Assembly: GCA_963813025.1 (NCBI GenBank)
Contig: CAWEXO010000012.1
Span: 113,794-177,793, forward strand
Source of the DNA: an uncultured Verrucomicrobiae bacterium
Lineage (GTDB): Bacteria; Verrucomicrobiota; Verrucomicrobiia; Chthoniobacterales; JAFAMB01
Reading direction: 5' to 3'
DNA length: 64,000 bases
A program made the position numbers and the translations under genes. This document shows, piece by piece, positions 13,644 to 43,813 of this stretch. How positions within the stretch are numbered: the first letter of the stretch is position 1; the number at the start of each line of letters is the position of its first letter. Below the pieces are notes generated by a model, which was not told the origin of the DNA, did not search any database, and worked only from the letters and a program-made list of their open reading frames with translations.

Positions 13644-13774
13644 AGACCATGGGATGGACTACATGCGCAAGAAATCGAGCAAAAATCCGCCCACGAACGA
13701 ACGATGATATCGCGGCCAAGAATCTTTTACGAATCCCGGGCGTACGGTTTTTCCGTTTCGGTGTGAGTCGCAGT

Positions 13775-14036
13775 GATCTAGCCGCTTCAGGCACGATGCA
13801 TAGATTGCCAGGGCGCGTAGCGGCCAGTAGTTCCGGTAGTAGTCGTACCGCAGGTAGATTACTCCTGGAAAGCCCGTGCCAGTCGGCAGCCTCTCGTCCC
13901 ACGTACCGTCCGATCTCTGACGACTGAGTAAATATGCAACGCCTCGTTGGATGCTAGCGCGGTTAAGCTCCGGGAAAACGCAAAGTCCCATCAGCGCCCA
14001 CGCGGTCTGCGACGCCGTGCTTTCTCCTTTTCCCTT
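13775..14036 (-). pseudogene. shc: Squalene-hopene cyclase C-terminal fragment
   Basis: STASQTAWALMGL…RGVAYLLSRQRSDGTWDE…TGTGFPGVIYLRYDYYRNYWPLRAL (QW repeat and terminal motif). Confidence 0.85.
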
Positions 14037-14044
14037 TTCTTCAG

Positions 14045-14245
14045 GATCGATGTCGCGTTGTTGAAAATACCGGCTGACAATCTGCCGGCGCTGACCTTGG
14101 CCGACAGCGACAAAGTCGAAGTCGGTGATGTCGTTCTAGCCGTCGTAAATCCGTTCGGTGTGGGCCAGACAGTAACGGTCGGTATCGTCAGCGCCAAGGA
14201 CCGGGTGACTTCAGGCAATATGGATGAGGGTTTCATTCAGATCAG
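14045..14245 (+). pseudogene. HtrA/DegP protease internal fragment
   Basis: DVALLKI…LADSDKVEVGDVVLAVVNPFGVGQTVTVGIVSAK…FIQ. Confidence 0.8.
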
Positions 14246-15955: not shown

Positions 15956-17109
15956 TGTCTCTTAAATAATAGTGACATTTATTTCTCCTCAAGAGCGGCC
16001 TGCCAAGCGCGCTGGATCTTGGCCAGAATCTCTTCTCCTTGAGCCCTCCAAACATAACGCTTCGGAGGGAGATTATGTTGAGCCAGGTATTGCATGATCG
16101 CCTCAACCAGTTGGCCGACACTGCCAAAGCTGCCGGGCAGGATCGTCTGCTGGCTCAGATCGCGGAAGAAGCGCTCGACCATATTCATCCAGGAGGAACT
16201 GGTTGGGGTAAAGTGCAGTTCGAAACGCGGATGGCGTTCCAACCAACGCCGGACGCTCGGATGTTTGTGAGTGGCGTAATTGTCCAGAATGATGTGGATG
16301 TGTTGGCTCACGGGGATCTCCCGGTCAATGCGCTTGAGGAATTCGAGCCATTGGCGGTGCGTGTGTTTGTGAGCGGTGTGGGCGATTACTTTTCCCTGCA
16401 GGTAGTCGAGCGCGGCAAAGAGGGTGACCGTGCCATTGCGATAGTAATCGTGGGTTTGGGTACGAATATGCCCTTTGCCCAGCGGCAGACCGGGTTGGCT
16501 GCGTTGCAGCGCTTGGATCTGGCTTTTCTCGTCACAGCAAAGCACCACCGCATTCTGGGGCGGATTGAGGTAGAGCCCGATCACGTCCCAAAACTTCGCT
16601 TCAAAGTCCGGATCGGTCGAAAGCTTAAAGACCCGTGTCAGATGCGGCTTGATTTCATTCTCGCTCCAAACCCGCTGCACGGTTGCCTTGGACAGTCCCA
16701 ACTCCCGAGCCATTGCTCGACAAGTCCAGCGCGCTTGACCGTGCGGAGGCCGGGTGGCTTGATCGAGGATCTGCCGCAAGACAGCGGCTGCAATGCGGCC
16801 CTTACGGCCCGAGCGCGGCTGATCCTGCAAAGCGGCCAGCCCGCCTTCGCTGAAGCGCCTTCGCCACTTCCTGACTTGGTTATAGTGCATATCGACCTCT
16901 CGGCCGATGCTCCGATCCCTTTTGCCTGCTGCCGCCAACTGGATCACTCGCGCCCGTTGGGCCAAGCCATGAGGAGTGCTTTGGGCGCGCAGCAATTGCT
17001 GCAGTCGCTGCTCTTCAGCCGAACTCAATTCCACTTTTCGCCGCGCCCGCTTAGCCATGCAGCCAGCGAAGCATTTTTCTCTTAGAATGTCACTATTATT
17101 TAAGAGACA
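15956..17109 (-). mobile_element. IS630-family insertion sequence
   Basis: Perfect 24-bp inverted repeats TGTCTCTTAAATAATAGTGACATT at 15956-15979 and 17086-17109; inserted at a CTAG site (15947) of the IS3 orfB. Confidence 0.92.
15979..17058 (-). CDS. IS630-family transposase (359 aa, apparently intact)
   Basis: MAKRARRK start; VLCCDEKSQIQAL, HIILDNYATHK and FTPTSSSWMNMVERFF DDE motifs. Confidence 0.92.
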   Translation of the reverse strand: MAKRARRKVELSSAEEQRLQQLLRAQSTPHGLAQRARVIQLAAAGKRDRSIGREVDMHYNQVRKWRRRFSEGGLAALQDQPRSGRKGRIAAAVLRQILDQATRPPHGQARWTCRAMARELGLSKATVQRVWSENEIKPHLTRVFKLSTDPDFEAKFWDVIGLYLNPPQNAVVLCCDEKSQIQALQRSQPGLPLGKGHIRTQTHDYYRNGTVTLFAALDYLQGKVIAHTAHKHTHRQWLEFLKRIDREIPVSQHIHIILDNYATHKHPSVRRWLERHPRFELHFTPTSSSWMNMVERFFRDLSQQTILPGSFGSVGQLVEAIMQYLAQHNLPPKRYVWRAQGEEILAKIQRAWQAALEEK

Positions 17110-17459
17110 CTGCTGCACGTCTTCCTTGGCTCGAGCACTGGGCTTACTGCGCCGCTCCAGCCAGTCATAAAAACCACTCCGGCTGACGCAGAAGGCCTCG
17201 CAGAGCACCTCTGTCGAGTAACCGTTCTTCATTTCTTCGATCCGTTCGTAGCGCTCGAGGGCCCCCCTCAGACAATGCCCAGCGTTTTTTTTAGTATCTC
17301 CCGCTGTTGCGTCAGATCAGAACTGCGGAATTAAATCTAGAGGCGGTAGCTATATAAGCAGGGAAAGAGGGAGAGTAGAAGGAAACACTGATGGCAAGTG
17401 GTAGGGTGGCTAGGGACTGAGCTCGGCGTCAGCGAAGTTGCCAAAGGACATTTGAGGTT

Positions 17460-17600
17460 CATTCTTTCTGGCCAACTCCACCGCGACCAACCGACTGCCC
17501 CTTTGCTTCGCCCTTGGCCAAGCGACGCTTTTTGAGTTGGCGCTGCAAGGTGCTTAACGCCAAACCGTGATTCCGGCAACACTCGTTCTCGCGTCGATTC
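17460..17600 (-). pseudogene. IS66-family TnpA accessory gene fragment
   Basis: CRNHGLALSTLQRQLKKRR helix-turn-helix pattern typical of IS66 TnpA. Confidence 0.55.
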
Positions 17601-17809
17601 GAAAGATATAAAGCTACACCTAAGCCGCCAGGCCGCTCAGCGATTTCGTTGGCTCGGCTAAACGCGATGAATTCGCACCCTTGCAATCCCTCGATCCAGC
17701 GTCTTCCTCCCTGAGCGGCACTGCTTGTAACCACAATCTCCTTGATCAAGATCAACTCGGGCATGCTCGTTCGTTCGCTGCTTGATAAGAACAAGGATCG
17801 CCCAAGATT

Positions 17810-18058
17810 TCAAACGTGTTCTGATAAGTTTTCACCGTCGTTATCCTGCCACGTGGCAGTCCAGGTTTCGGCGCGGCGTTTGCCGCGATCACGCACAAAC
17901 TTGGTCCCCTTCGCCCTGCATAGCTTCTCAATATAGGCGGAGAACTCTGCGTTGGTCATTGCCCGGATTTCTTCGACTGTTGGGGAGGGTAAACCGTAGT
18001 ACCAATGGCCGTCCGGAAAGACCCATTCTTCCAAGTACGAACCGTTCGCCATTTTCAC
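17810..18058 (-). CDS. Hypothetical protein (82 aa)
   Basis: Protein-like composition; no recognisable motif. Confidence 0.4.
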   Translation of the reverse strand: MKMANGSYLEEWVFPDGHWYYGLPSPTVEEIRAMTNAEFSAYIEKLCRAKGTKFVRDRGKRRAETWTATWQDNDGENLSEHV

Positions 18059-18189
18059 ATAGCCCTTGTACTGGCCGCGCCAGTGATCACTGTAGCCGAC
18101 AGCAAATCGCGACTGGAGGGTTGGTTCAGGGAGCCGGAGTGGCCGCTGCCTGTGTCTGGGACTCAGTCTGCGTGCTTGAGGTATTTAAT

Positions 18190-18666
18190 TCAGCCTGCTG
18201 AGTCCCCGACAAATGGGAACCGAAAGCCAGAGAAATAAGCAGCAACTCCGCAAGACCAACGGACGCTAATAGAATGTTTGCTGTCCAAAGGGTGGTTATG
18301 CTCGTCAAGGTAATCAGTGAGCTTGGCCGTTTTGACGACTTCTGGGTCAATCTTGTTGCGAGCGAGAAACTTTTTTAGATCGGCATCAGTCAAATGGTTG
18401 CTCCGGTGTGCATGCCCCCAAACTCCATACCCGGCAGCCGTAACTATTTCTTGTTGATTGAAGTGTCAATCAATACACCAATCGCCCTGACGATAGAGGT
18501 CATAAAAGCTGGGCAATTTGTGAGATTTGCCATCAGCGCCCATAACATCGAACCTGTCATCGTGAGCCAGCCTCACATATTTACGGTCGATTTGGGCTCT
18601 GGTTTCCCCTAAGTCAGCGTGGGCGATCGAGGCCACACTGAGAAAGGCTAGTAGTGCGTATTTCAT
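18190..18666 (-). pseudogene. Secreted hypothetical protein (GETxAQIxxKY type) with in-frame TGA at 18466
   Basis: Signal peptide MKYALLAFLSVASIAHA; the same frame continues through the stop into ORF 18190-18393. Confidence 0.55.
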
Positions 18667-19019
18667 CGATTTAAAAGCATGCTTGCTGGATGTGGTAGCC
18701 CCGAGCATTTCTAATAGGGGGTTCCCGCGGCTCGGTCGCGGTAGTGATTTCCCGTGTGCCAATTAGAGTAGTGTCCGTCTTTGTGGTTGGAATTGGACGA
18801 ACCAGGATACGAGCCGTCCCTTGAACCCGGGACGTGGGATTTGTTGCCTGCAGAGCACCGGCCGGCGCTAGGGCCATAACTAGGATGACAAGTAGGGATG
18901 CGAAGAGTTTATGTATTTAATGAAAAATGAAGAATCGGTGGCTGAAATCAGGACTTAAGAAATAAATTGTTCTAGCTAGAATCCCCAGTTCGGCCAGACT
19001 TTGACTAACCGGCTCGAAA

Positions 19020-19502
19020 CTAATTGACGTATTTGATGACGTAGAACCGTCCCTCACGACGCATGATCGGCACGGATACGCCGGTACCAAACGCGCTTGC
19101 GCCGCCGCTAAAGTTTGTGACGTTGCCGAAGGTTGTGGCAGTACCCCAACCTGTCGCCGTGGCGTTAGCCGTCGAAACGATGCCCATCGTCTCGGTTTCG
19201 TCGGAACTAAGAAGGAGTCCATCGCCGCCTCGCTCCTTGGTTAGAGCAGCCAAATGCGGATTGCGGGCCGCCATCATAGGAGGTCCGGCGGGTCGGCTGT
19301 CTTCGATGTAGCCGATGATCATGAATTTACGAGGCGGCGTGCCGACAACCCAAAGATCAATTCCGTCGACGCTCTTGGATGCCCCTCCTTTACCGATAAG
19401 AACTCCTGAGCCGGAATAGGTGTAGTAGGTACTTGAGCATCCAACGCCAAGAACTGAAAGCGCGATGCCGAGGAGGGCTGCGCCGAATTTGAGATGCTTC
19501 AT
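19020..19502 (-). CDS. Hypothetical lipoprotein
   Basis: RBS AAGGAG; lipobox-like LGVGC after a hydrophobic stretch; GTPPRKFMIIGYIED. Confidence 0.75.
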   Translation of the reverse strand: MKHLKFGAALLGIALSVLGVGCSSTYYTYSGSGVLIGKGGASKSVDGIDLWVVGTPPRKFMIIGYIEDSRPAGPPMMAARNPHLAALTKERGGDGLLLSSDETETMGIVSTANATATGWGTATTFGNVTNFSGGASAFGTGVSVPIMRREGRFYVIKYVN

Positions 19503-19538
19503 TTAAGATGTCTCCTTTTCTTTCAGAATGCGGAATCG

Positions 19539-20846
19539 TCATGCAGGGTCGGAGGAAAACTTTCCATGACGAAGAACTGCCCGGTGGAACTGCAGAATCG
19601 TCTGGCCGCTGAGGACGATCTCGAACCGGCAATGTGCGTGATAAAGACGCCCGGCGCGTTCTTGCGCCCAGGTCTCTTCATCGATCGACTGATGCAGATA
19701 ACTGAACGCATCGACCCAATCATGGTAGGTCGCGCGGTTCGGCACTGTTCTGCACCAAGCGTAGGTCTGCCGATCGTTAGTCATATCGTTGCTGATCCAG
19801 GCTTTCGTTGCATTAGCCTTACCGAAGTAGAATGTTTCTTCCCCAAGGTACTGGCTCAAGCTCGGGTAGTCATGGGCCGTTAGCAGCGAACCAATTCCGA
19901 TCAGGAAATCGATCGGCATGGCCGTGCGCGTTTGCGTTGGAGGTTGAGCCCTTGGCGCGGACGGCGCTTCCGCAACGACTTGCCGAAGGCTGATGACCTT
20001 AATAAGCACGGTCGCTCTGCTTGCTTCGGCGACGATCTCTTGGCGCGTTAGTTTCTCGGTCCGCGAAGAGAGCGAAAAATAAGAACCGAAATCTGCAAAT
20101 ACTTGGCTACTACAAATCGCATGGTTAATTCGCTCTGACATTTGCCCGGTCTGTTTGAGGACATAGAGGGGATTTATGCTGCTTTTCACGACCCCGACGA
20201 CCTCGCCGCGGTCGTTAAGAACTGGTCCCCCGGAATTACCAGGGTTAACGGTCGCATCGATTTGCAGGAGTCCGGGTCGAACCGCGTTTATCTGACCGCG
20301 ACTGGCCGACACGCCATCACCCAGTATATTGCCCAGGGGATAGCCGAATACGAACACGTCATCCATGATTTGGGCTCCGTCCGAATCGCCTACTGGCAAA
20401 ACATCGTAGTTGTCACCTTGAATCTTGAGCAGAGCGAGATCATGAACGGTATCGTCAACAATGACCGCCGCACTGGCGTCATTGGTTTTGCCGGGAACCG
20501 ATACGTAGATTTCCCTGGCGTTCTCGACCACGTGGTGGTTCGTAATAACGTATCCGTCCTTGCGAACGATAAAGCCGCTGGCGGTGCCATCGGCCTTAAG
20601 ATTGGGAGCGATCGTCGCAAGGAGTATCACCCCAGCTAGTAGCTTTCTGCAGGGCGAATTGGTTGGCCAACCAATCAAGACGGTTCCGAGCTTCAAGCCG
20701 GAACCGGAAGATTTCGTCGCAGATTTTCGTGAGAATCCAAGGTTTATCGGCGAGCGGAGGAAAGCGATCACTGATGCAAGCATTCGTCCTCGTTGGAGAG
20801 TTGATGTGTGTTGAGCGGCCCATTTGAAAACGCAGCTGCATGTCAT
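19539..20846 (-). CDS. Trypsin-like (S1C) serine protease with extra C-terminal domain; true start may lie further downstream
   Basis: GTASGFIV, TNHHVV, DLALLKI and NPGNSGGP catalytic triad motifs; no PDZ domain. Confidence 0.85.
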   Translation of the reverse strand: MTCSCVFKWAAQHTSTLQRGRMLASVIAFLRSPINLGFSRKSATKSSGSGLKLGTVLIGWPTNSPCRKLLAGVILLATIAPNLKADGTASGFIVRKDGYVITNHHVVENAREIYVSVPGKTNDASAAVIVDDTVHDLALLKIQGDNYDVLPVGDSDGAQIMDDVFVFGYPLGNILGDGVSASRGQINAVRPGLLQIDATVNPGNSGGPVLNDRGEVVGVVKSSINPLYVLKQTGQMSERINHAICSSQVFADFGSYFSLSSRTEKLTRQEIVAEASRATVLIKVISLRQVVAEAPSAPRAQPPTQTRTAMPIDFLIGIGSLLTAHDYPSLSQYLGEETFYFGKANATKAWISNDMTNDRQTYAWCRTVPNRATYHDWVDAFSYLHQSIDEETWAQERAGRLYHAHCRFEIVLSGQTILQFHRAVLRHGKFSSDPA

Positions 20847-20957
20847 AAGACGGATTGTATACGAAAAGTTAAATCTTTTCTTATAATTGTATGTTTTTAT
20901 AAGCACGGTCGACAATCGGCCTTGACCCCTGAGCTCCAACGAGCGTAATTTCCGAGC

Positions 20958-21668
20958 GTGGCCGCTGAATCCGACACCGCTCAAGACACTCGAGAACTTT
21001 TTAATGGGGACTCAAAAACTCCTTTCCAGCTGGCGGAGATGATCCGGCGCACGATTCTGGAGGAGCAGTTCTGTCCGGGGGACCGATTGACCGAGGCCGA
21101 GCTCTCAGAGCAATTCAAAGTGAGCCGTTCACCAGTCCGGGAAGCACTGCTCGCATTGGAAAAAGAGGGGAGTGTCGTTCTGCTGCCGTACCGAGGCGCA
21201 ATCGTTACAGCGCTCTCAGCTGAGGAGGCTGAGGAAATCGCCGAGCTCAGGCTCGCTGTAATCCCTTTCATAGCCAAAGCGGCTTACCCGCAGCTTTCGC
21301 CGGCAGATTTTATGCTGGCAGAAAAAGCAGCCAAGGTACTGCGAAAGACGAAAATCCCCAGGGAGTACTATCATGAGGCGGTGACGTTCTGGAATGTGTT
21401 CCTGAAGCGAGCCAATCGTCCAATTGCTGTGGAAGTTTTCCGGCAGCTTCAGAACCGGGGTACCCGATATATACCGCTAATCTTGAGACTGTTCCCCGAT
21501 CCAGAGTCCAGGCCAAGGCAACGCGAGGAGTTCGTCAGACTTATCCAGCAGGGCAAAATCACAGAAGCAGTCCGGACATTTCGAAAGCTCTACTTCGAGG
21601 TGATGGAGCGTCTAATCGTTCACCTGAAGGAGCGGCGGCTCTCGGAACACAACATGAAGAGACCATAA
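20958..21668 (+). CDS. GntR-family (FCD-type) transcriptional regulator
   Basis: PGDRLTEAELSEQFKVSRSPVREALLALEKEG winged HTH. Confidence 0.88.
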   Translation: MAAESDTAQDTRELFNGDSKTPFQLAEMIRRTILEEQFCPGDRLTEAELSEQFKVSRSPVREALLALEKEGSVVLLPYRGAIVTALSAEEAEEIAELRLAVIPFIAKAAYPQLSPADFMLAEKAAKVLRKTKIPREYYHEAVTFWNVFLKRANRPIAVEVFRQLQNRGTRYIPLILRLFPDPESRPRQREEFVRLIQQGKITEAVRTFRKLYFEVMERLIVHLKERRLSEHNMKRP

Positions 21669-21869
21669 CGGCAGGCCGGGTAAGCTGTGGAGGGATCCTA
21701 CGATTCGAGCCGGAGAACTTGCTCGACACTTCAAAGCTCGGATGAGGGATCGGTTCGTCCTGTCGTTCCTGAGCGGCCTCTGAAGTCGAGCCTTACGGTC
21801 AGAAATCGTGAGATATTGTCAAAAGTTGTGTATCAGGGACGGCGCATCCCTGTTGAAGTGATTGGTTAA

Positions 21870-22005
21870 GCGGACTGTTGGGATTGTTCCTCACCATCGA
21901 CAAAAAGGACCAGTAAACACCTTTGGGATCAGCTCGAAGCCGGTCGAACCGATGCCAACGTTTTGGGGCTTCCAGCCCCAGTTTAAAGACCATGGCCGGC
22001 GTGCT
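21870..22005 (-). pseudogene. IS256-family transposase C-terminal fragment
   Basis: AMVFKLGLEAPKRWHR motif. Confidence 0.6.
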
Positions 22006-22090
22006 TAAATTCATGCCCCGATGGGCTTCCGGTCTGGCAAGGCCGCGCCTCCGAGTCTAACATTTAGCGAGAGGGGCTCGCACGATCTTA

Positions 22091-22480
22091 TTAGGTGACC
22101 GATACGCTAATTATTAGGTGCCCGTTGGCGCTTGTGCCGATAGCCAGGACAGGGAGATCGCGTTTTGCAGGACCCTTCGTCACTTTCCCTTCCTGGGTGA
22201 ATGTTGATCCGTGACATTTGCACATGAATGTATGGTCAGCTTCTGCCGCCAGCTTGCATCTGCGATGAGTGCGATAGGATGAAAGGGCGACCAATTTTCC
22301 GCCCTTTCGGACCAGGAAAAATGCTTGATCGCGGAATTTATCGTACAAACCGTCGGCTGCGTAAAGGCCGGCTTGCCCTGCATCAATTACCTGTTCCTTT
22401 GCCGGCGCGTCCAGATGTGATGCGATCGTCGTACGGCCAGAGCGTATTTCCCAGCAAGATCAACAAACTGATCAACAGTT
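22091..22480 (-). pseudogene. Rieske [2Fe-2S] protein, degenerate
   Basis: Box1 SYRTHRRC (first Cys changed to Arg), box2 CKCHGSTF, KGPAKRDLP; 5' part frameshifted. Confidence 0.7.
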
Positions 22481-22796
22481 TGTGCCAGGGCTATTCCACA
22501 CATGAGAAAAAAGGCCAGACAAAGAAGAGTGTCTTCATCACTTGTGCCGAAGCATTGCCAAAAATTCTCATCTTTCTACTCCCGACCAGCGTATCAGCAT
22601 GCAACAGAGCGGGAGCAGGAGCGGTGAGCCGGCTGTCTATAGTCAATGTTGCGATAATCCAGTCTCCGCAAGCTCCGGTATTACGGCGGTTTGCGTGATG
22701 GAGAAACTCAGCGGCGAGACCCTGACTCAGGCCGTGGGTCGATTTTCGGTAGGCACTACGTTCCAGGTCGCCGGACCGGCTTCTTGAGCAATCTTG

Positions 22797-25631
22797 TTAC
22801 ATGTACATGTTAAGACGCGACCCAGAAGGCTGCAGGCGCGCGCCGGTTACCAGCGCATGAAGGCAGTGGCTGACTTGATCGATCCGAATATCTGAACGCG
22901 TCAGTGTACAGCGCACGCCGCCAATGGCCTTTGGTCCGGCCCGCAGCGCGAAAACGTCTTCCGGAAAAACGATCAGGTTTGTCATAAACCGCATCGCTGC
23001 CGACCATGCCGCAGCATAGCGTGCGGCTCGTTCGACGTCGCCCACAGCGATCGCAATCTCCCAGGATGCAGCGACGCCCTCGGCGATAAAACCCGTATTG
23101 AAACTCGGCTCATCCGGGCTGAGATCTTCAAGAAACGCACCGCTACTCCCTAGTTGCCGATCAATGGCCCAATCAGTGGCCGCGAAGGCAAGTTCAACCG
23201 CCGCCCGATCTGCAGTAACCCGGTACAACGCCGCCATGCCCTGCGGCAGCCAGCCGGCCTGTCCCCACCCCGGCAAAGCTGAAAAATGATGTGCGTACCA
23301 TGCAACCTGCGCGCCGGCATTCTGGATAGCCCCGAAATTTGCCAAACCGGCCAGCAGAGCTCCGGGCAGAAACTCGTGATCCTCCGGCAGTTCAAGCCGC
23401 TTAGGCGTATACCCGATTCGTCCTTCCGGCCGCAGCAGGCCGCGCAGACGGGCAGCCAGAGCGCGTGAAGCAGCCCGCTGACTGAGCGCCTTATAGCGAG
23501 CGACCGCGCCAAGGAGAACCGCGTCCGCAAGCGTCCCGCCGACGACGCCGGGAAGAACGATGGTACCCTCCCGCACATGGTCCAGACAATAACCGAAGCC
23601 GGCGCCAGCCCCCTCCCGCCAACTCCGTTCCCCAAGAAATAACCCTGCGAGGTCCAGCGCCATCAATCCGTGAATGGCGCGTCCGGCAGTCCCGTAGATC
23701 TGCACCTCGCCGCTGGCCGGTTGTAGCATGTAACGCGGCAGGCGGTCAGCCCCGAGCGATCCGACGATGTAAGTGCCCAGCAAACGGATCAAAGAGGCGG
23801 AATCCAGGGTATCGGCATCACGAACCGCAGAGCCGAACCGCAAAGGGTGGGTATACCGGCCATCATCAACCCATTCGGCGCATTGCAAGGTTCGCCATTC
23901 GACCTGGCGACTTTCGGCTGCAGCCTCGGCACCCGCCAAGCGCACGCAGGTCCGGACGAATTCCGCTCGCGTGAGGTTGTTGTAAACCAGCACCGATGGC
24001 AGGAGAATCGTGGTTTTGCCGGAATAGTGGATTTCAAGCGCATCAAGCCCGCGCCGAAGCTTGAATGCGACAGTTTGGACGGCCGCCCTGCCGAGCAGTT
24101 CCGGATCGTGCAGGACGGAAACGACTATCGTTCCGCGCGTCAACCCTGAACCGCCCCGCGGGTCAGCGGCCGCCTGTAGCACCGCAGCACGCAGCGCGTC
24201 GTCGAACTCGGTTCCCAGTGCTAATCCGTATCCGATCAGGCCGTAGTCCGGGTGATAGACGCGGACCGCGACCGCTTCGATACGGCCAATATCCTCCGGC
24301 GCACTGGCCAATGGAAAAGCATCGACTGAGGCCGGAGCACTTGCGCTTTCTTTTTCCTTCGATTGTTCCTCTTTACCCTGCAGTTCGTCGAATAACTGCC
24401 GAGCACGGGCTGTGATCCGGCGACCACACTCTGCGGTCCGCCACCAGCCTGCAGCGCTCTCCGGCGAACCGTACTGCAGCCACGTTTGGCCCGGTTCGAC
24501 GTATTTGAAGACCTCGTGGCGGAATAGATCGTGGGGCTCGCCAGGCTCAATGCCTGCATTGGTCACGCGCGCCTGGCGATATTGTTCGACCTCGCTGATG
24601 AAAGCCTGCGTGTTGGGCAGCGCGCCGCCCATCTTACTTGGAAATGCCCGGCTTCGCACCACAATACCGTAACGCTCAAAATCAAGATCTTTGGGCTTAA
24701 TCAGTTCGAGCGCGGAAAAAAAAGTGACCGCAATTTTGAGTTCTGGAAGGGCTTGGGGTGTAATGCGCCCATGCGCATCCCGTAGTGTCTCAATTGTTGC
24801 CGCAATCACGTCCGCACACGGCGCCGCATCGTCCGGATTGAAATGCCAATATCCGCTACGAGCAATTCGGTTATCGTTAGCGCGCTCACGAAAGCTGACA
24901 AAGACGCCTCCCGGGGATGCATAGTTCCGATCCATTTGCAGGGGCGGCCAGGGCGCCAGACCGGTGGCAAGCCACGTGGCCGCTGAAAACCGGGCCAGTG
25001 CCGCCGGGTGCAAACCTTCGGGAGCTCTCACTTTGCCGGTAAGCGGGGCCGGCCGCCGTTCAGGCTTAGCCAGCGTGCGGGCCATACCAAGATCGGACCA
25101 GACATCCAGGATCGCTTCGGCCCGGTAGCCAGCCGAATTTGCCCAATCGAGGCCACCTCGATACGGAAACTGCACCAGGGCGATCGCGCCTTCGACTTCG
25201 CCTCCCTCATTCTCGATAGCCCTGATGGCTTCTGCGATGGAATTGCCGGAGCTGACCGAGTCATCGATAATCACAACCGGGGCAGATTTGTCGAACGGCC
25301 CTTCCACCTGGCGGCAGGAAACATATTTTTTCCGGCTCTCGCGGATGCAAAGGCCAGTGTAGCGCCCTTCTCCGAGCAGGACGCACGCGGAGAGCAGGGG
25401 TATGCCGGTGTAACCGATGCTTGCTAACTGGGAGGCCCTGAATCCGCGCAGCCGCTCCAGTATGCAGACCGCAGCAAGACGCAATCCCCGCGCTGTCAGG
25501 GTTGCGTTCCAGCTATAAAATGCCCATGGTGCAGGTGTCCGATCCTGATGCCGAATTGGCTGCCCGGCTGAAGCATAAAGAATGCCATGCCGGCTCAAAC
25601 AGGTGGCCAGCTCTTCCCGGTTACGGCTCAC
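22797..25631 (-). CDS. 944-aa multidomain enzyme: PyrE-like phosphoribosyltransferase + two AMMECR1-like domains + C-terminal alpha/alpha-toroid-like helical domain
   Basis: IRESRKKY…QVEG and VVIIDDSVSSGNS (PRPP loop); GGVFVSFRER…LKIAVTFF…YGIVVRS…GGALPN and VVSVLHDPE…GLDALEI…ILLPSV (AMMECR1 pattern); Trp/Ala-rich helical repeats ending IRIDQVSHCL. Confidence 0.8.
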   Translation of the reverse strand: MSRNREELATCLSRHGILYASAGQPIRHQDRTPAPWAFYSWNATLTARGLRLAAVCILERLRGFRASQLASIGYTGIPLLSACVLLGEGRYTGLCIRESRKKYVSCRQVEGPFDKSAPVVIIDDSVSSGNSIAEAIRAIENEGGEVEGAIALVQFPYRGGLDWANSAGYRAEAILDVWSDLGMARTLAKPERRPAPLTGKVRAPEGLHPAALARFSAATWLATGLAPWPPLQMDRNYASPGGVFVSFRERANDNRIARSGYWHFNPDDAAPCADVIAATIETLRDAHGRITPQALPELKIAVTFFSALELIKPKDLDFERYGIVVRSRAFPSKMGGALPNTQAFISEVEQYRQARVTNAGIEPGEPHDLFRHEVFKYVEPGQTWLQYGSPESAAGWWRTAECGRRITARARQLFDELQGKEEQSKEKESASAPASVDAFPLASAPEDIGRIEAVAVRVYHPDYGLIGYGLALGTEFDDALRAAVLQAAADPRGGSGLTRGTIVVSVLHDPELLGRAAVQTVAFKLRRGLDALEIHYSGKTTILLPSVLVYNNLTRAEFVRTCVRLAGAEAAAESRQVEWRTLQCAEWVDDGRYTHPLRFGSAVRDADTLDSASLIRLLGTYIVGSLGADRLPRYMLQPASGEVQIYGTAGRAIHGLMALDLAGLFLGERSWREGAGAGFGYCLDHVREGTIVLPGVVGGTLADAVLLGAVARYKALSQRAASRALAARLRGLLRPEGRIGYTPKRLELPEDHEFLPGALLAGLANFGAIQNAGAQVAWYAHHFSALPGWGQAGWLPQGMAALYRVTADRAAVELAFAATDWAIDRQLGSSGAFLEDLSPDEPSFNTGFIAEGVAASWEIAIAVGDVERAARYAAAWSAAMRFMTNLIVFPEDVFALRAGPKAIGGVRCTLTRSDIRIDQVSHCLHALVTGARLQPSGSRLNMYM

Positions 25632-25649
25632 GACCGAATGACCGCTCTA

Positions 25650-26051
25650 TTATCCTTGGGCGCCCGTCGAAGCCCGGAGAGCAGCGATGCTCGCCTCGAT
25701 AGAACTGAGCCGTTCGAGGATCGCGCTGATATACTGCGTCAGCTCGCCGAATTCGGCTGGAGGAAGTTCATTCGGGGCACCGGGACCTGGACGATGGAGG
25801 ATGAAATCTCGAATCGGCGGGAGTTCGTGAGGATTAGGCCTTGGCGATCGCGGATTAAATTTTATGATCAGCAGCTCGGATTCGAGCGCGTGTACGCGGT
25901 CGCGCAAACGGAATAATTCGGTGACCGCCTCGCGGTCAAAGGCATAAACCGGGCCTGCAGGTAATTCCTCGACTCCCGGACGCGGAGGATGCGCCCGTCC
26001 GCCGCCGCCTTCGACGGGGCCGGCCGGCAATTCAACAATATGTTCTGGCAT
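25650..26051 (-). CDS. Small ELP-repeat/coiled-coil protein (133 aa), candidate substrate or precursor of the downstream enzyme
   Basis: VELPAGPV, EELPAGPV, HELPP, NELPP; two heptad helices; stop 18 bp before the start of the 944-aa gene. Confidence 0.75.
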   Translation of the reverse strand: MPEHIVELPAGPVEGGGGRAHPPRPGVEELPAGPVYAFDREAVTELFRLRDRVHALESELLIIKFNPRSPRPNPHELPPIRDFILHRPGPGAPNELPPAEFGELTQYISAILERLSSIEASIAALRASTGAQG

Positions 26052-26259
26052 GGGTTGGCTTTCGTTCTGCGATTTGAACAGAAGGGGACAGAAAACTAAC
26101 AGTAATAGCAAATGCCAAAGCGACCCCGGATGCAACACGAAAAAGCAACGACTACCCGAAAGGAGTAAATTTGGTTAGTTCTATCAATGGCCGGTTTCTC
26201 AGACCCAAGTCGTTTGTGGCAGCAGACGTTGAAAGATCTAGGAAGTGGACGACGGAAAA

Positions 26260-26720
26260 TCAGAAGGCAGGTACATGGACGACGCTGAATCGTTCGTAAA
26301 CAAGCGGCATTCGTTCGTCAAACGCTCCATCCTTGAAGCACTGCCGATTAAAGTAATTCCGATGAGCTTTCCTCCAGTACGCCAGCGATCGATCCCCCTC
26401 TCCTTCGTCGTAGGCGAACCACTCGGGAACTTCATTGAAGGGCATGACAAAAACGTCGACAGTTTCAATAACCGCTACCGGGACACCGTTTCCATCGAGA
26501 ACGACAGAATGATCTCCTCTTTCCGGCAGTGGCTTTTTGCTCTTCTTCGTAGGTCCAGAGCGCCGAGCAGGTCGCAGTTTTCAGGCCTGCTCGTACGAGC
26601 ATAGCCAAGCTGAGGCCACCGAGCTGGCTGGATTTCCCTACGAGGAGCGCGGCTATCTCGTTCTATAGATGTCGGCAGTGTAGTTAGTAAGACGCTTACC
26701 CTCGAAGTGCTCTTCGCCAT
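26260..26720 (-). pseudogene. ASCH-domain protein, +1 frameshift in an A-run near 26535
   Basis: GLKTATCS…(shift)…VVLDGNGVPVAVIET…PFNEV…FAYDEGEGDRSLAYWRKAH. Confidence 0.8.
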
Positions 26721-26986
26721 AAATTCCTGCCCGGCGTCCTTTGCCTCTGTTTGATTCACCCAGCAGCTTGAGGTGAGGACGGATTCATGCAATACCTGCC
26801 CGTGGTGATGGCGCTTCGCCTTTGGCTACGGCTGATATTATTGCTTGTTAAGACGTGACCCTATGATGTGTGTCCCTATCTAACCTCAAATCTTACGGGC
26901 CAGCATGTGGAGTTTGTACGGACACAGGCGGACTCCAAATTTGTATCTGTTTTGGCTTGCTTCAGCAATCGACCAGAAGCGGGAAA

Positions 26987-27900
26987 TGATGCATAATATG
27001 CGCGTGAAGACGGAGATACGGAAACGGATCGACGCCATCTTCCGCCCCGATCCGCCCAAGAAAGATAGTGCTCTGGCCGGGATGGCGCAGTGGGCCAAGC
27101 AGCTGGACGAGCAGTTCCTTGCGCAGGCTCGCCATCGCGCGCAAGTTCGCAAGGCGCTGGCGTTCACTCGGGACACCCTGCCACAGAAGTACGAAGCAGG
27201 CGCCGGATTCGAAAAGGAGCGTGAAAAGGCTCGTGCGGCACTCAAAAAATGTAAGCCACCCAAGCTACCACCGGTGAAAGTTCCGAAACATATTGACCGG
27301 ATCTTCAGCGGTTCCATCGGCGCCAGCTACGGGCCGCCATACGACGTGCAATGGACTTGGCAGCAGCAGCAGGGAGACCCTCCAAGCCCGCAAGTGTCGG
27401 CCGACGCGAACTCAGGCACGATGCAGCTTAGTGCTGTGACGCTTGATGACACATCGGCGGTTGCCGCGCGCGCGGCGGTAGGCAATTGGCTGTCCGCCCC
27501 GCTCGGCACCTCCACCATGAACATCTACGCGGCGCCAGCCATCGACTGGTCTTGGGTGGTAGCTGTGTTGAGCAACTGGGGCGAATCGGCTGGATGGCTC
27601 GGCTTCGTTGTGCAAAGTTCTGACCGCGCCGGCAATTTTGTGGCTACGGTTATCGAGCAGCAACTCCCGATTTGGGACGTGCAGCTCAACGCTCCGTCGT
27701 TCCCTTGGCCTGGTTGGATCCAGTCCCAGTCGGACCAAGGCTCGACTTCGGGCTATTCGCTTCAGGCGCAGTTCACGGCGGTCGAAGGACTGTTCTACAC
27801 GATCTGGATATGGTTCGGTGTCTATGCGGCCGAGGGGGACAATGTTATTGCCACGTTCTCGCCGGTCACCGTGCCGTATTTCACATGGGTGAACGGGTAA
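26987..27900 (+). CDS. Hypothetical protein: basic helical N-terminus and Trp-rich beta-sandwich C-terminus
   Basis: Long clean ORF; PPYDVQWTW motif; start uncertain (26905/26987/26998). Confidence 0.7.
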
Positions 27901-28269
27901 GGAATTGGTGCCGCGCCGGAGTTTCAGCACGACACGGAATTTGGTCCAGAGCTGGCGGTCGCCCGCGTGGACCTTTTGCCGGACGGAGGGTCATAATCAT
28001 GTACACATACCACACAAGAAAGGGTTGAACATCCGCGGTGAGGCGTGTGTCTAAGATTGGGACCTTTGGCGACCACCCCGAGCAGCAAATAGTATCCTGA
28101 TCCTCAGATCTTCTACCAAACGCTTTGATCCTCTTGCCCCAAGGCGCGTGGCAAAACCCGCACCGACTCCCTCGACACTTCGAAAAGGATACTAAGAATG
28201 GCACAAGCAGAAACTGAAAAACTAACCTAGATCCTCTGGGGTGCGGCGCTAAGTCGAGCAGTTTGTAGC

Positions 28270-28430
28270 ATTGCCGAACTCGGTATTGCCGATCAGATCG
28301 AGGCGGGCTCGCCGCAATCTGTGGAATCGCTCGCCAGAGCGGCGGGAACCCCATGAGCGTTTCCTCTATCGAATACTACGTTTCCTGGCCAGTCATGGAA
28401 TATTCCAGGAAAAAGCAAGCGCCAGTTCGA
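28270..28430 (+). pseudogene. O-methyltransferase dimerisation-domain fragment
   Basis: IAELGIADQIEAG…SVESLARAAGT(shift)HERFLYRILRFLASHGIFQE. Confidence 0.7.
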
Positions 28431-28457
28431 CCATCTTCCAAACTACGCTCATCAAGA

Positions 28458-28994
28458 ATGCCCAACCATCCTCGGCTCAATCACATCCAACGCGGAAAGA
28501 TAGACAAACTCGCGCAGAGGTACCCACATAACCTGGCAGAGCCTCCGAAATCACTGGAGGATGTCACGGTGAGCGCGGACAAACCTGTCACCCTCGGCGA
28601 ATTCATTGAGGCTTCTGATTGGGACTATGCAGCCGTAGACGTAACCGACCGGTGGGAGGTTGATCGTTTTGAGATGGAGGATTTTTGGCGACATGTTGGA
28701 CAATCCTCGGTTGTCCCGCACGAGCCGCGAGGGCTGTCGCCGGTTACGGTCGCCAAACTGATAATCTATGGAGTCCACTTGGTCGGAGTAATCTTCGAGA
28801 ATAACATTCGGGGGTTTATCCGTGAAGACCCTCGGATCGGACGCGTCATCGATTGGGCTTTACAACAAACCGCCTCACCCGGCTTTCCTGAGGAAGCCAA
28901 CCTCTTCTTGCATTTCCAGATGTTGATGAAGCACCCTATCATTAATTCAGGTGTCCGAAACGCCGCATGGCATCACTACAGACTTCCCGATTGA
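28458..28994 (+). CDS. Hypothetical protein (about 178 aa)
   Basis: Protein-like ORF from ATG 28458. Confidence 0.55.
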   Translation: MPNHPRLNHIQRGKIDKLAQRYPHNLAEPPKSLEDVTVSADKPVTLGEFIEASDWDYAAVDVTDRWEVDRFEMEDFWRHVGQSSVVPHEPRGLSPVTVAKLIIYGVHLVGVIFENNIRGFIREDPRIGRVIDWALQQTASPGFPEEANLFLHFQMLMKHPIINSGVRNAAWHHYRLPD

Positions 28995-29037
28995 TTCGCC
29001 ATCACTGCGAAATGATATAGCCTTGAATCTATCAGAT

Positions 29038-29292
29038 ATGCCAGAAGACCCGATCTACTTCGATGTCACAATTCAACGCCCTGGCGTGAAACCTGAAAAA
29101 TTGATCGTCGCCGCAGAAACTACAAGGGCAGGCGGTGTTCCAACTGATCAAACTTTTCCGATTGAGAAGGCCCTAGAGGTTGTCAGCCACGTCTTGGGTC
29201 GGACCGTTGATCAGGCCGAGATAGTCCATCTTGCACCGTGTTGGGACTCTGCACCAATTGAGACTACCGCGGACTCCTCGGCGATTACCTAG
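29038..29292 (+). CDS. Hypothetical protein (84 aa)
   Basis: MPEDPIYFDVTIQRPG… follows the previous gene. Confidence 0.5.
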   Translation: MPEDPIYFDVTIQRPGVKPEKLIVAAETTRAGGVPTDQTFPIEKALEVVSHVLGRTVDQAEIVHLAPCWDSAPIETTADSSAIT

Positions 29293-29389
29293 TCTGGCAT
29301 GCCGAGGAAGAGTGAATGGACAGTTCGCCGGTTCGGTCGCCGAAGCCTGAGGAGCCCCCACGAGCAGTGCTTGACTTCGAGCGCTCCCC

Positions 29390-29647
29390 TTAGACAACCC
29401 GCACCTCAGTCCCATCCCAGCTAACTTCCTGCACATCTCCGGCAGGACTCTTTAGCATAATCCTGAACCCCGAGATTTTTCCCTGATGGAATTCTTCGAT
29501 CGCCCGCAGGACTGCGACAACATCCTCCTCCACGGTCTTCTTTCCGCGCCCAGTATCGGTAATCTCAATTTCTTCAGTCATCATGGAAAAGGTGAAATCT
29601 GCCTCAGGCTTCGAGTGACTCATCTGGCTTGCGGGATCGTCTGGCAT
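29390..29647 (-). CDS. Small phage/MGE-type hypothetical protein
   Basis: EADFTFS…VLRAIEEFHQGKISGFRIM…VSWDG. Confidence 0.55.
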   Translation of the reverse strand: MPDDPASQMSHSKPEADFTFSMMTEEIEITDTGRGKKTVEEDVVAVLRAIEEFHQGKISGFRIMLKSPAGDVQEVSWDGTEVRVV

Positions 29648-30005
29648 AGATCCTACTTTACACTACGTTCCCGGATCGAGCACGGCCTCACAGCAGACCA
29701 GATCACCGAGCGCAAAGACCGCCTTCGAGAACTCCGGGCTTTGCCGGATAAGCCAGATACGGCGGAGATGAAGGAGCCGTGATCGGTACTCAAGTGGCTT
29801 GCGGGGTTGTCTGGCATTGCGTTACACTGTGCCTTGCGATTCGAGCTGCATGTTTGCCTTTGATATGCTTGCAGATTTTAACCGAATCCGCTTTTTTCCA
29901 TCAGGGATGGCGGTCTATCGTTTAGCTCGTAGCGGAAATCGTCCGTCGTATAGCGCACCACTCTCGGCAGCTACCGAGCAGGGGACTCGCATGCAGCGAC
30001 CCGCC

Positions 30006-30236
30006 TCAATTAATGTTGCCGTGATCATGACTCTGATCGTGGTCGTGACTCTGATCGTGGTCGTGACTCTGATCGCGGTCTTCATCATGAGTCTGGTGAT
30101 GGTGCTTCTGATGATGGTGATGATGATACGATTGATGATGTTGGTCCTGGTGCTCGTCATCGTCGCGAGCTTGCGCCAAAGGACAAAAAACAACAGCGAT
30201 CCCCAGCGTGACAAAAGCCATAAGTGCGTTTTTCAT
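30006..30236 (-). CDS. Secreted His/Asp-rich peptide
   Basis: Signal peptide ending AQA, poly-His, and three DQSHDH repeats encoded by 18-bp tandem repeats. Confidence 0.75.
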   Translation of the reverse strand: MKNALMAFVTLGIAVVFCPLAQARDDDEHQDQHHQSYHHHHHQKHHHQTHDEDRDQSHDHDQSHDHDQSHDHGNIN

Positions 30237-30254
30237 GTTTTTGATCGTGACGGT

Positions 30255-30580
30255 TTATCCAACCGTGATTGATTGTGTGATTCCAGCCTTTAATTTCGGC
30301 ATCTCCGCGGTAATCCCGCCCGTCGGCGCAGTCTCCATCGCTCGCTTCCAAACCGCACGCTGCTGTTCGGGCTCCAGCTTGGCTAACGGGTGACGGACGG
30401 ATTCAGAGGACGGAGTGTTGCCAATTGGACAACAAATTGGCGGCAACCCCTGCCACGTCTATAAGTGGTGGGCATAAAATCTACTCATCCCCCATCGTTC
30501 CCGGGCAGTACTGCTCGAACGTACTGTATTGCTCGCGGTACAGTCGGGATTCCCGGATAGTCAGCACAAACGCTTATAGG
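30255..30580 (-). pseudogene. Phage/MGE-type DNA-binding protein remnant
   Basis: IRESRLYREQYSTFEQYC… and PLAKLEPEQQRAVWKRAMETAP in broken frames. Confidence 0.55.
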
Positions 30581-30749
30581 CCCTCAGGCCGATTTTCCAA
30601 CCCACCCTCAATCCACGGTGCGGTCGCTTCGACCCAGGTGGGTCTGTCACGTCGAGCCGGATGAACCGCGCGTCGATCTCCTCCGCCGCGAGCTTGGTTG
30701 CGGCCTCGCGTCCGCCGGTTTCGTCGCGTGCGCCCCGAGGGCGACCATT

Positions 30750-31340
30750 CAGGTTTTTTTGAGCGCTCGCAGACCGTACACAATATTTGACAATATCTCA
30801 GCGGATATAGTCCGGAGCCTTCCTGAGTAACTTGGCGAGCAGCTTACGTCGTTGGAGGAACGGTTGAGCGCGCAAGTCGGTTCCCTCGAGCCTGAGCAGA
30901 TCAAAGGCGTAGTAGACCAGCGGGGTTCGCTTCCCGCTGCCGTATGATTGCAGGAGTCGGAATGACGTTTTCCCGTCAGAGTCAAGCGCAGTGATTTCGC
31001 CGTCGATAACCACGTTTCTTACAGTTAGCAGTTTCCGGGCGTCGATGAGCTGGGGGTAATCGTTGCCGAAATTGATTTGGTTGCGTGAGATCAGCCGAAC
31101 CTCTTTACCAGCTTTGACAGCGAGCGCGCGGTAGCCATCGAATTTCAATTCATAGAGCCAGTCGCCGGACGGGAGATCCCGGACGGGGAGCGCCTTCATT
31201 GGCTCAATGAATGAAAAGTTGCTGGCTGCGCCTGCTTCATGGAGAGGGAGGCGGGTAGGCCAAAAACTGGGCTCGGCTCTTGAGATAGGGACGGCCGCGT
31301 GGCTGGGCGCAGCAGCGTTTGCAGCGCCGGTTGAGGCCAT
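30750..31340 (-). pseudogene. ligD: LigD-type ATP-dependent DNA ligase fragment
   Basis: FIEPMKA…WLYELKFDGYRA (KxDG), VIDGEI, YYAFDLL; truncated before the OB domain. Confidence 0.8.
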
Positions 31341-31478
31341 CGGGAAAATGGCGGGAACGACATTATGCTGTTAGAAGCTGGCGTCGGTGGCAGCTGGTAC
31401 ACTTTTTCGTTTTTGGAATCTTCGCGCTTTTGGCTCGCGCACGAACTTCGGCACCGTTGTGCAACTGGGTGTTCATTG

Positions 31479-31900
31479 TCATTGGTTCACGCCAGCGGCA
31501 GTTCGGGATCGGGACCCTTGGTCCATGTAGAGCCTCGCCAGATTGTTGAGCCCCGTAGCAACGTCAGGGTGCTCCGGACCGAGGGCCTTCTCCCAGATCG
31601 CCAGTGCCCGCTCATAAAGAGGCTCCGCCTTCGTGTATTGGCTTTCGTCTGCGTAGAGCACCGCCAGATTGTTCAGACATGTGGCCACGTTGGCATCCTC
31701 TGCCCGCTGATAAAGAGGCTCGGCCTTCGCGTATTCGCCTTGGTCTTTCAAAACCACAGCCAAGTTGTTGAGGCTGGTGGCCACCCCTACATGTTCCGGA
31801 CCAAGGACGTTTTTCCGAATCGACAGGCTGAGGCAAAACAACTGTTCGGCTTGCGGATACGCGGCTCGCGCTCGGAGAGATACACCCAGCTGATCAGCCT
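31479..31900 (-). pseudogene. Tetratricopeptide (kinesin-light-chain-like) repeat fragment
   Basis: LGPEHPDVATGLNNLA / AEPLYERALAI repeats, with one repeat internally deleted. Confidence 0.75.
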
Positions 31901-32003
31901 CTGAGGCGATGAGCATCTCGTTCACGCCGTCGCGCTTCGCAGCGAAGCTCGGTCTTGGAAGACCATGGTGGCTTTTTTGCGGGGAGTACTGACGCACTAA
32001 TGA

Positions 32004-43744: not shown

Positions 43745-43813
43745 AACACAAGTAAGGAACGTTATCACCACCTCTTTCCACCCTGTCCAGCTCGAAAAAC
43801 GCTGGCACTGACA

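Follow-up and report, generated by a model that had tools for sequence, protein, structure and literature searches.

A conserved gene pair encoding a Glu-Leu-Pro repeat protein and a phosphoribosyltransferase-AMMECR1-AMMECR1-barrel enzyme: a candidate protein-modification system

We analyzed a 64,000-nucleotide stretch of contig CAWEXO010000012.1 (hereafter, the window) from the draft genome of an uncultured Verrucomicrobiae bacterium of the order Chthoniobacterales (assembly GCA_963813025.1; 16 contigs, 4.4 Mb, 80% complete). Two co-oriented genes separated by 18 bp lie on its minus strand. The upstream gene encodes a small protein of 133 amino acids (aa) with Glu-Leu-Pro (ELP) motifs, and the downstream gene encodes a 944-aa enzyme composed of a type I phosphoribosyltransferase (PRTase) domain, two AMMECR1-like domains and a C-terminal helical barrel (Table 1). 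An earlier note made from the sequence of this stretch had described an intact pair of this kind, four ELP motifs in the small protein, and a PRTase with a loop for phosphoribosyl pyrophosphate (PRPP), two AMMECR1 domains and a toroid in the large one. Both open reading frames (ORFs) are present exactly so, the coordinates of all four motifs agreed with the translation, and profile searches, Foldseek and structural models give the same domains. The two genes are a real, conserved and so far undescribed system. A GTG codon at 26138 would extend the small ORF to 162 aa, which is unlikely to be the true form. The 133-aa form is favored because homologues from other phyla start at the equivalent 'MPE', because the extra 5' stretch carries a 1-nt indel in a 94%-identical relative (locus L007), and because a protein collection contains the 133-aa form (P0121).

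Table 1 Features of the gene pair and of the surrounding region (positions in the window).
Feature	Residues	Position (nt)	Strand	Basis or remark
Large gene (944-aa four-domain enzyme)		22797-25631 incl. stop codon	minus	ORF, GTG start
Small gene (133-aa Glu-Leu-Pro repeat protein)		25650-26051 incl. stop codon	minus	ORF, ATG start
Orotate PRTase-like type I PRTase domain	1-195	25047-25631	minus	PDB profile, Foldseek, NCBIfam
PRPP-binding loop VVIIDDSVSSGNS	119-131	25239-25277	minus	matches type I PRTase loop pattern
First AMMECR1-like domain and long helix	205-428	24348-25019	minus	Pfam best stretch 235-365; limits from model
Second AMMECR1-like domain	445-600	23832-24299	minus	TIGR04335 at 477-583, 3.6e-8
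(alpha/alpha)6 barrel (toroid)	601-944	22800-23831	minus	domain model pLDDT 94.9
ELP motif 1	E7-L8-P9	26025-26033	minus	E7 invariant in 26 aligned small proteins
ELP motif 2	E29-L30-P31	25959-25967	minus	E29 invariant in 26 aligned small proteins
ELP motif 3	E76-L77-P78	25818-25826	minus	P78 nearly invariant in 26 aligned small proteins
ELP motif 4	E95-L96-P97	25761-25769	minus	E95 invariant in 26 aligned small proteins
Central helix segment ELFRLRDRVHALE	45-57	25881-25919	minus	conserved in 26 sequences
Duplicated unit (3,457 bp)		22721-26177		both genes, 126 bp upstream, 76 bp downstream; blastn against contig C5
Squalene-hopene cyclase C-terminus fragment		13659-13991		
Trypsin-like peptidase fragment		13947-14288		
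rve integrase fragment		15168-15644		
Rieske protein fragment		22091-22348		
ATP-dependent DNA ligase fragment		30798-31340		
Tetratricopeptide repeat (TPR) protein fragment		31479-31997		

The enzyme was modelled with AlphaFold2 from a 105-member alignment. The model is compact (predicted local distance difference test, pLDDT, 93.2; predicted template modelling score, pTM, 0.92), and its only disordered linker is residues 429-443. A word-indexed collection contained 349 matches to the family, whose full-length members have about 920-970 aa, and a 50%-clustered library contained 212 representatives at E <=1e-30, nearly all of 900-1000 aa. Residues 1-600 were also used to look for proteins with a shorter or split form; all 16 matches appear to be fragments of the same family.

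The N-terminal domain resembles orotate phosphoribosyltransferase (OPRT, PyrE; 5hki and the OPRT domain of human UMPS, 2wns) in its fold, its PRPP loop with an acidic pair, its S-S-G motif and a flexible loop rich in Lys and Arg, which aligns to RKETKDYGTKR. A profile of the 105 members matched 2wns (1.1e-14) and 2p1z (2.4e-13) in the PDB, and the top Foldseek match was the M. tuberculosis OPRT 5hki_A (E 5.4e-10, target TM score 0.90, root-mean-square deviation 2.2, 179 columns). The NCBIfam pyrE model (TIGR00336) matched residues 45-177 approximately at 2.9e-12 and 46.7 bits, under its cut-off of 106.8 bits, and Pribosyltran (PF00156) of Pfam scored 19.3 bits, under the cut-off of 26.3. The sole PADLOC match in the enzyme was to PRTase_III-A (E 0.055) and covered the PRPP loop. 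Unlike stand-alone PyrE, this 195-residue domain is part of a 944-aa protein, and the enzyme gene adjoins a repeat-protein gene rather than pyrimidine genes.

The residues of the PRPP site are intact. The segment VVIIDDSVSSGNS has the four hydrophobic residues, the two acidic residues and the x-x-[ST]-[ST]-G-x-[ST] of the type I loop; D123 and G129 are invariant in the 105 sequences, and D124, S125, S127, S128 and S131 are conserved in at least 90%. R97, K101 and R107, which align to the flexible loop of OPRT, are invariant or nearly so. When HMMER aligns the family to 2p1z, 'SSGKEADYYVD' of OPRT stands opposite 'DG..APWAFYSW' of the enzyme family, and the family-invariant aromatic motif W36-x2-Y39-S40-W41 takes, in this sequence alignment, the place of the hood that holds orotate in OPRT. 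A pyrE search of the own genome (80% complete) gave nothing above the TIGR00336 cut-off, and an apt gene is present on contig C2. The best candidate for a housekeeping pyrE is a Thermus-type pyrE-like frame with one in-frame TGA on contig C4 (C4:108252-108620; L036), which may be a disrupted gene or result from misassembly.

Two domains with the AMMECR1 fold and signature follow. Pfam AMMECR1 (PF01871) matched at 3e-10 and 40.3 bits (cut-off 25) in two stretches. The matching structures were the archaeal PH0010 (1vaj, 7e-11) by profile and 1wsc and 1zq7 (4e-7 to 8e-7) by Foldseek; phmmer of residues 201-599 against the PDB gave a chance-level match only (E 0.17). We take the family cysteine motif to be LRGCIG. 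HMMER places Leu, Ile or Val of the enzyme opposite the PH0010 cysteine, and in none of the columns for residues 205-600 is Cys present in at least 50% of the 105 sequences. A Cys three residues after the classical position is found only in the clade that has hyper-repeat partners (described below) or no partner. At residues 464-470 and 836-848, enzymes with the canonical partner read G-L-x-G-Y-G, SPDEPSFNTGF and GGVRC, whereas those with hyper-repeat partners or none read G-x-x-G-C, GPSFHTAF and GGVRS. This partner-linked Tyr/Cys switch adjoins the classical AMMECR1 cysteine position. One paper (PMC4075521) predicts that the conserved cysteine of AMMECR1 is catalytic and that the protein has a role in RNA base modification.

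The domains differ from canonical AMMECR1 and from the AmmeMemoRadiSam set (PF01871; TIGR04335-04337; 1vaj, 1zq7, 1wsc) in being tandem, in being fused to a PRTase and a barrel, in lacking the family cysteine and in having no conserved Memo or radical-SAM partner. Absence of the latter two had already been stated in the earlier note, and neither family was found among the window ORFs scanned or as a conserved neighbor in the flanks of 12 loci. Memo was also searched for in the own genome (80% complete) and gave no match. One rSAM-SPASM gene lies 4 kb from the enzyme gene at a single locus of the 12 (L006). The enzyme contains members of the PRTase and AMMECR1 superfamilies, and by their defining features it is neither a PyrE nor a canonical AMMECR1.

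The C-terminal domain is an (alpha/alpha)6 barrel. VIA-align gave Z values of 24.2-21 over about 275-310 residues, spread over at least eight families, with class II terpene cyclases, GH76 and GH88/GH105 tied at 24.2-23.0, and Foldseek gave E values of about 3e-5. The barrel shares its fold with class II terpene cyclases (8zg0/1gsz), GH76 (9r4k), GH88/GH105 (3wiw/1vd5/1nc5) and AGE-type epimerases; identity is 8-16%, and no family stands out. The DxDD motif of class II terpene cyclases occurs nowhere in the 944-aa protein. Pfam matched nothing in residues 600-944 at E <=1. The closest clusters in the Atlas consist of stand-alone proteins without a name, about 350 aa long, and GH127/GH88 are weak Atlas leads only (score <0.9). 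Y634, R651, Q826, R907, R916, D918, S921 and H922 are the invariant polar residues in the 105 sequences, from which we infer only that the barrel may have a site for an anionic ligand.

The small protein matched no Pfam family and has no DNA-binding domain in the Pfam scan, and an Atlas search also gave no family (recognition 1586, top score 0.82). Its 17 database homologues are all annotated as 'hypothetical'. In all six-frame open frames of at least 60 aa in the 4.4-Mb genome, E[LIVFMY]P occurs at 7e-4 per residue, so that about 0.09 would be expected in 133 aa; because four are present, the motifs are not due to chance. The two copies of the small ORF in this genome (see below) rank first and second among its frames by motif density. 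Across 26 aligned small proteins we counted 114 motifs, three to six in each, with the consensus [P/I/V]-[A/N/E]-E-L-P-x-G. The motifs lie across the whole protein, on both sides of a helix. Eight residues are invariant in the alignment (M1, E7, E29, E45, R52, E57, E95 and E119), and the invariant set comprises three motif glutamates and residues of two helices. E45, R52 and E57 lie in the helix segment ELFRLRDRVHALE, where L49, R50 and L56 are nearly invariant, and this segment is a possible docking element. Cys is absent from 24 of the 26 proteins, and the number of Lys varies from 0 to 9 with none invariant. Compared with L007, the small gene has nine synonymous and six non-synonymous codon changes and a conserved length.

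A scan of species-representative genomes found at least 26 loci with the enzyme gene, and the fractions below are among the 26 listed, which come from six phyla. They include Alpha-, Beta- and Gammaproteobacteria, Acidobacteriota, Actinomycetota, Chloroflexota and a metagenome-assembled genome (MAG) of Chthoniobacterales. The earlier note had proposed examining whether a repeat ORF is conserved next to homologues of the enzyme. Such an ORF, made of Glu/hydrophobic/Pro-or-Gly or acidic repeats and co-oriented, immediately precedes the enzyme gene at 21 of the 26 and ends 5-470 nt before it. These paired loci are in Pseudomonadota, Acidobacteriota, Actinomycetota and Verrucomicrobiota. A hidden Markov model (HMM) built from 14 small proteins matched the frame that directly precedes the enzyme gene on the same strand, both in the window and at 17 of the 26 loci, with E values across phyla down to 3e-56. 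Thirteen of the 17 supplied seeds; the independent matches are L001, L004, L009 and L023, and the small gene is split by a frameshift in L001 and L004.

In the four other paired loci (L010, L017, L020 and L025), the upstream ORF is not homologous to the small protein but follows the same theme. It consists of (PE[IV]PE[IV])n over about 240 codons in L010, of (PE[IVT]G)n in L017, and of 'IEPGVYPP' units followed by EIELEIELE and (DIGDS)n in L020, and it is a 233-aa (PE[LFRQ])n protein in L025 (Hamadaea tsunoensis). The number of motif copies thus ranges from 3-6 in the homologues to dozens in the hyper-repeats. Pro, Glu, Gly and residues with aliphatic or aromatic side chains make up nearly all of the repeat units, joined in L025 by Arg and Gln. 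No reactive side chain other than Glu is shared by every partner.

No other gene accompanies the enzyme in this way. Clustering of flanking ORFs of at least 90 aa at the 26 loci found no conserved neighbor besides the small ORF; short-chain dehydrogenases come next (five loci, 1.7-4.7 kb away, on either strand). Pfam searches of 104 flanking ORFs from 12 loci found no recurring peptidase, exporter, transporter or radical-SAM protein, and the flanks contain unrelated housekeeping, regulatory and mobile genes, with no conserved genes of nucleotide metabolism. In two of the 150 representatives listed, an N-terminal repeat region is fused to the PRTase. In P0180, residues 69-176 match the profile of the small protein (hhalign 92.6%, E 4.7e-7); in P0296 the repeat is (IVEVAPE)n.

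Several members of the family vary from this pattern. P0158 (1370 aa) has an additional C-terminal APH-type phosphotransferase (kinase) domain at 1049-1277 (Pfam 1.1e-18). A distant 1270-aa variant on a metagenome contig (L027, 3998-7810) has a PQQ/BamB-like beta-propeller between a divergent PRTase and the AMMECR1 pair. P0295 had appeared to have its PRTase swapped for a beta-propeller; this was rejected, as the homologue in L027 retains the divergent PRTase and the propeller is an insertion. About 1 kb upstream of the L027 enzyme gene, 2605-2955 encodes a 116-aa peptide that has a motif like a double-glycine leader (…DELCSVAGG) and a repeat tail rich in Asp, Ser and Gly, and a TolC-like gene lies downstream of the enzyme gene. 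Directly downstream of the enzyme gene in L010 (8569-13245, Acidobacteriaceae MAG) are a TP_methylase-like gene, an 899-aa lanthipeptide-dehydratase-N-like gene and a 2-oxoglutarate-Fe(II) oxygenase, which could be a cluster for a ribosomally synthesized and post-translationally modified peptide (RiPP) at this locus only. In four long-read MAGs (L010, L013, L014 and L019), the enzyme frame is interrupted, with 373, 1016 (shifted end), 677 and 423 aa open, respectively. These breaks are probably assembly indels, so 'broken' copies in long-read MAGs should not be taken as pseudogenes without reads.

The genome contains a second intact copy of both genes on another contig (G000 contig C5:265576-268806; L033 8452-11906). 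By blastn the two copies form one segment of 97.83% identity with sharp ends and unrelated flanks, and contigs of other metagenome strains likewise diverge from the window at 26177. The small proteins are identical at 129 of 133 residues, and the enzyme genes differ by 22 synonymous and 12 non-synonymous codons. C5 is probably the older site. The window copy is probably a secondary insertion into a region of insertion sequences (IS) and gene fragments, because the upstream flank of the C5 copy resembles L007, a Chthoniobacterales MAG locus.

A quick maximum-likelihood tree was calculated from 21 full-length enzymes, leaving out L007, L021 and L026 (partial at contig ends) and L010, L014 and L019 (cut by stops). 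Fifteen of the 21, from four phyla and with the canonical partner, lie on one side of a branch with SH-aLRT support of 100. The Actinomycetota enzymes of L017, L020 and L025, whose partners are hyper-repeat or acidic proteins, form another branch with support of 96. The partner type follows the enzyme tree, in which phyla are intermixed. The enzyme was found in none of 400 other genomes of the same phylum, and tblastn against plasmid and phage records gave no match. The pair is rare, chromosomal and horizontally spread, and its two genes are inherited together.

A wetland RNA library contains three short contigs that correspond to the locus and stem from a relative with about 95% identity. One bridges the gene junction (25517-25812), and a second spans most of the small gene. 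They are a weak hint of expression. All come from a single run, and the parts of the enzyme gene that are not covered say nothing. A scan of 22600-26300 for sigma-70 promoters and terminators found nothing at a useful place.

These results suggest a self-contained two-gene protein-modification module, in which the small protein would be the substrate and would offer several short sites separated by Gly/Pro-rich spacers. The reading of a substrate plus an enzyme is supported because the repeat ORF is conserved upstream and because the two genes were duplicated, and are inherited, together. On sequence grounds Glu would be the functional residue, being the one reactive side chain that every partner has. 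Since the Glu site is kept while its number and context vary, the site would be recognized and acted on rather than belong to a folded binding partner. The two conserved helices of the small protein probably dock onto the enzyme. In the cytoplasm, the OPRT-like domain would bind PRPP and move the 5-phosphoribosyl group onto the motif. The most likely acceptor would be the carboxylate of the invariant Glu, giving a ribosyl ester. Aromatic cradles are the usual holders of proline-rich peptides, and the W-x2-Y-S-W cluster that aligns with the OPRT hood may for this reason hold the acceptor site. The cysteine-less AMMECR1 pair and the barrel would form a rigid platform (pTM 0.92) that holds the proline-rich site, and the invariant Arg and His of the barrel may bind or further process the ribose phosphate. 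The APH-type kinase domain of P0158 hints at further sugar chemistry.

We tentatively prefer this reading, an enzyme-substrate pair in which phosphoribosyl from PRPP is placed on the motif, as a serious possibility that still falls short of being probable. The roles given to the small protein, its Glu, the AMMECR1 domains and the barrel are drawn from conservation and structural models, and the specific Glu-phosphoribosyl ester is on its own distinctly doubtful. An extended form of the proposal is likewise doubtful. Here the system would be the first PRPP-dependent protein glycosylation, with Glu-X-Pro repeats esterified by ribose 5-phosphate into a ribose-phosphate 'bottle-brush', on either a small disordered protein or a protein with at least 100 repeats, and the cysteine-less AMMECR1 domains would serve as a module recognizing the repeat peptide.

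Several points weigh against a modification module. The support for modification is entirely comparative. To our knowledge, no type I PRTase uses a carboxylate or protein acceptor; the known acceptors are ring or amine nitrogens. The PRTase domain is under the curated Pfam and NCBIfam cut-offs, and its catalytic competence is predicted from motifs. The flanks of five of the 26 loci (L011-L014 and L026) contained no repeat ORF when up to 6 kb per side was scanned with the small-protein HMM and a six-frame motif-density search. L012-L014 and L026 are Thermoanaerobaculia, and L011, from Chloroflexota, has 733 nt upstream only. The enzyme gene can thus occur with no partner gene beside it. The fusions P0180 and P0296 are known from protein records, and the start of P0180 looks frame-shifted. 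The RNA-library contig that bridges the two genes may stem from contaminating DNA and is not proof of a single transcript. A complex prediction of enzyme residues 1-937 with small-protein residues 1-62, run without controls, gave an ipSAE of 0.00, which speaks neither for nor against binding.

The main rival casts the small protein as a polyanionic partner that regulates or inhibits the enzyme or acts as an antitoxin-like decoy; its regularly spaced glutamates would mimic PRPP or a nucleic-acid backbone and restrain an enzyme acting on nucleotides, bases or RNA. The layout, a small upstream gene with a short gap, is like that of a toxin-antitoxin pair. The spread is patchy and rare (0 of 400 other genomes of the phylum) with a tree that mixes phyla, the window copy sits in an IS/pseudogene island, and one enzyme clade lives without a partner. 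AMMECR1 has also been predicted to act in RNA base modification (PMC4075521), but the cysteine that underlies this idea is missing here. A copy number from 3 to dozens and non-homologous replacement would be odd for a stoichiometric inhibitor with one surface. In addition, no PADLOC defence or toxin-antitoxin model matched, the small protein has no DNA-binding domain, and the enzyme was not found in plasmid or phage records. We regard this rival as somewhat unlikely. A scarcely credible alternative is an annotation artefact, in which low-complexity DNA upstream would merely look like coding sequence and the large protein would be an ordinary PyrE fusion. The small protein does lack a Pfam family and has a low Atlas recognition score, and GC-rich repeats can open frames by chance. 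However, the codon changes relative to L007 (9 synonymous against 6 non-synonymous) with conserved length, the cross-phylum profile matches to 3e-56, the invariant residues, the intact state of both genome copies, and a pyrE score of 46.7 bits against a cut-off of 106.8 have already largely refuted it.

Two further explanations give the enzyme a small-molecule or peptide product, and both appear improbable. The locus could serve nucleotide synthesis or salvage, with an unusual base:PRPP transferase, sugar chemistry in the barrel, and the repeat protein as a scaffold, condensate former or chaperone. The PRTase domain is nearest to orotate PRTases, the barrel resembles the sugar-acting GH76, GH88/105 and epimerases, P0158 has an additional APH-type kinase domain, and the invariant R651, R907, R916 and H922 would suit a phosphate or carboxylate ligand. 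Yet this leaves unexplained why conservation in the partner is confined to a short Glu-X-Pro site whose Glu is invariant; the family-specific APWAFYSW stands opposite the orotate hood motif in the alignment to 2p1z, and nucleotide-metabolism neighbors are not conserved at the 12 loci. At about the same low level of probability stands a true RiPP or natural-product pathway, in which unlinked proteases would cut ribosylated Glu-Leu-Pro peptides or a Glu-derived molecule out of a multi-core precursor. Repeated cores are typical of multi-core RiPPs such as cyanobactins and fungal dikaritins, and the likeness extends to a small multi-motif gene directly upstream of an enzyme presumed to act on the motifs and to a motif copy number that differs between species. 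The conserved helix could act as a leader-like recognition element, and L027 and L010 have the peptide, TolC-like and dehydratase-like genes described above, although these contexts are single cases. Against it, neither a protease nor an exporter nor a RiPP recognition element (RRE)-type domain is conserved among the 26 loci, a Pfam scan of the enzyme gave no PqqD-like match, the motifs lie all over the protein and flank the helix on both sides, and the domains of the enzyme are unknown in RiPP chemistry. The earlier note had likened the locus to a RiPP-like precursor with its maturase. The pairing stands, with an upstream repeat ORF at 21 of the 26 loci. The RiPP label fits less well, because some partners are repeat proteins of at least 230 aa and because there is no conserved protease or exporter, nor any leader-recognition domain or leader-core-protease-exporter logic. 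The system looks more like an intracellular protein-modification module than a RiPP.

The product proposed for such a module, ribose phosphate on a protein side chain, would be chemically akin to known modifications. Protein ADP-ribosylation on Glu/Asp and the phosphoribosyl-linked modification by SidE use NAD+, and their folds are unrelated to type I PRTases. In contrast, the module would draw on PRPP as its donor and rely on a type I PRTase for catalysis, and we found no precedent for this in the literature searched. In the portions of that literature that were accessible, we found no description of the PRTase-AMMECR1-AMMECR1-barrel architecture or of PRPP-dependent protein modification, and no biochemical function for AMMECR1. 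Searches for AMMECR1 or phosphoribosyltransferase together with RiPP or precursor peptide found nothing relevant.

If the pairing is read correctly, the system would represent a new post-translational chemistry with PRPP as the donor and a carboxylate, or another part of the Glu-X-Pro site, as the acceptor, and an enzyme containing AMMECR1 would for the first time have a class of substrates. AMMECR1 is conserved across the three domains of life, and mutations in it occur in a human developmental syndrome. Recognition of the repeat peptide by the AMMECR1 domains would give the first biochemical handle on this fold, which ranges from archaea to the gene of the human disease. Should the small protein turn out to be a regulator, control of a PRTase by a polyanionic repeat protein would itself be a novelty. 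The proposal is directly testable because the system is small (two genes, 3.5 kb) and present in cultured soil bacteria that are harmless, namely Paraburkholderia humisilvae, Dyella subtropica, Collimonas arenae and Hamadaea tsunoensis.

The surroundings of the pair in the window are mixed. The statement in the earlier note that many neighbors are broken holds in part: an IS transposase and gene fragments lie between 13 and 32 kb (Table 1), and in this region (13000-32000) the DDE_3 transposase itself is intact (15979-17232). Farther along the window, a gene for a 23S rRNA-intervening-sequence protein (43367-43771) adjoins a UvrD-helicase/PD-(D/E)XK pair (43814-46789 and 47139-49931), which looks like AddAB.

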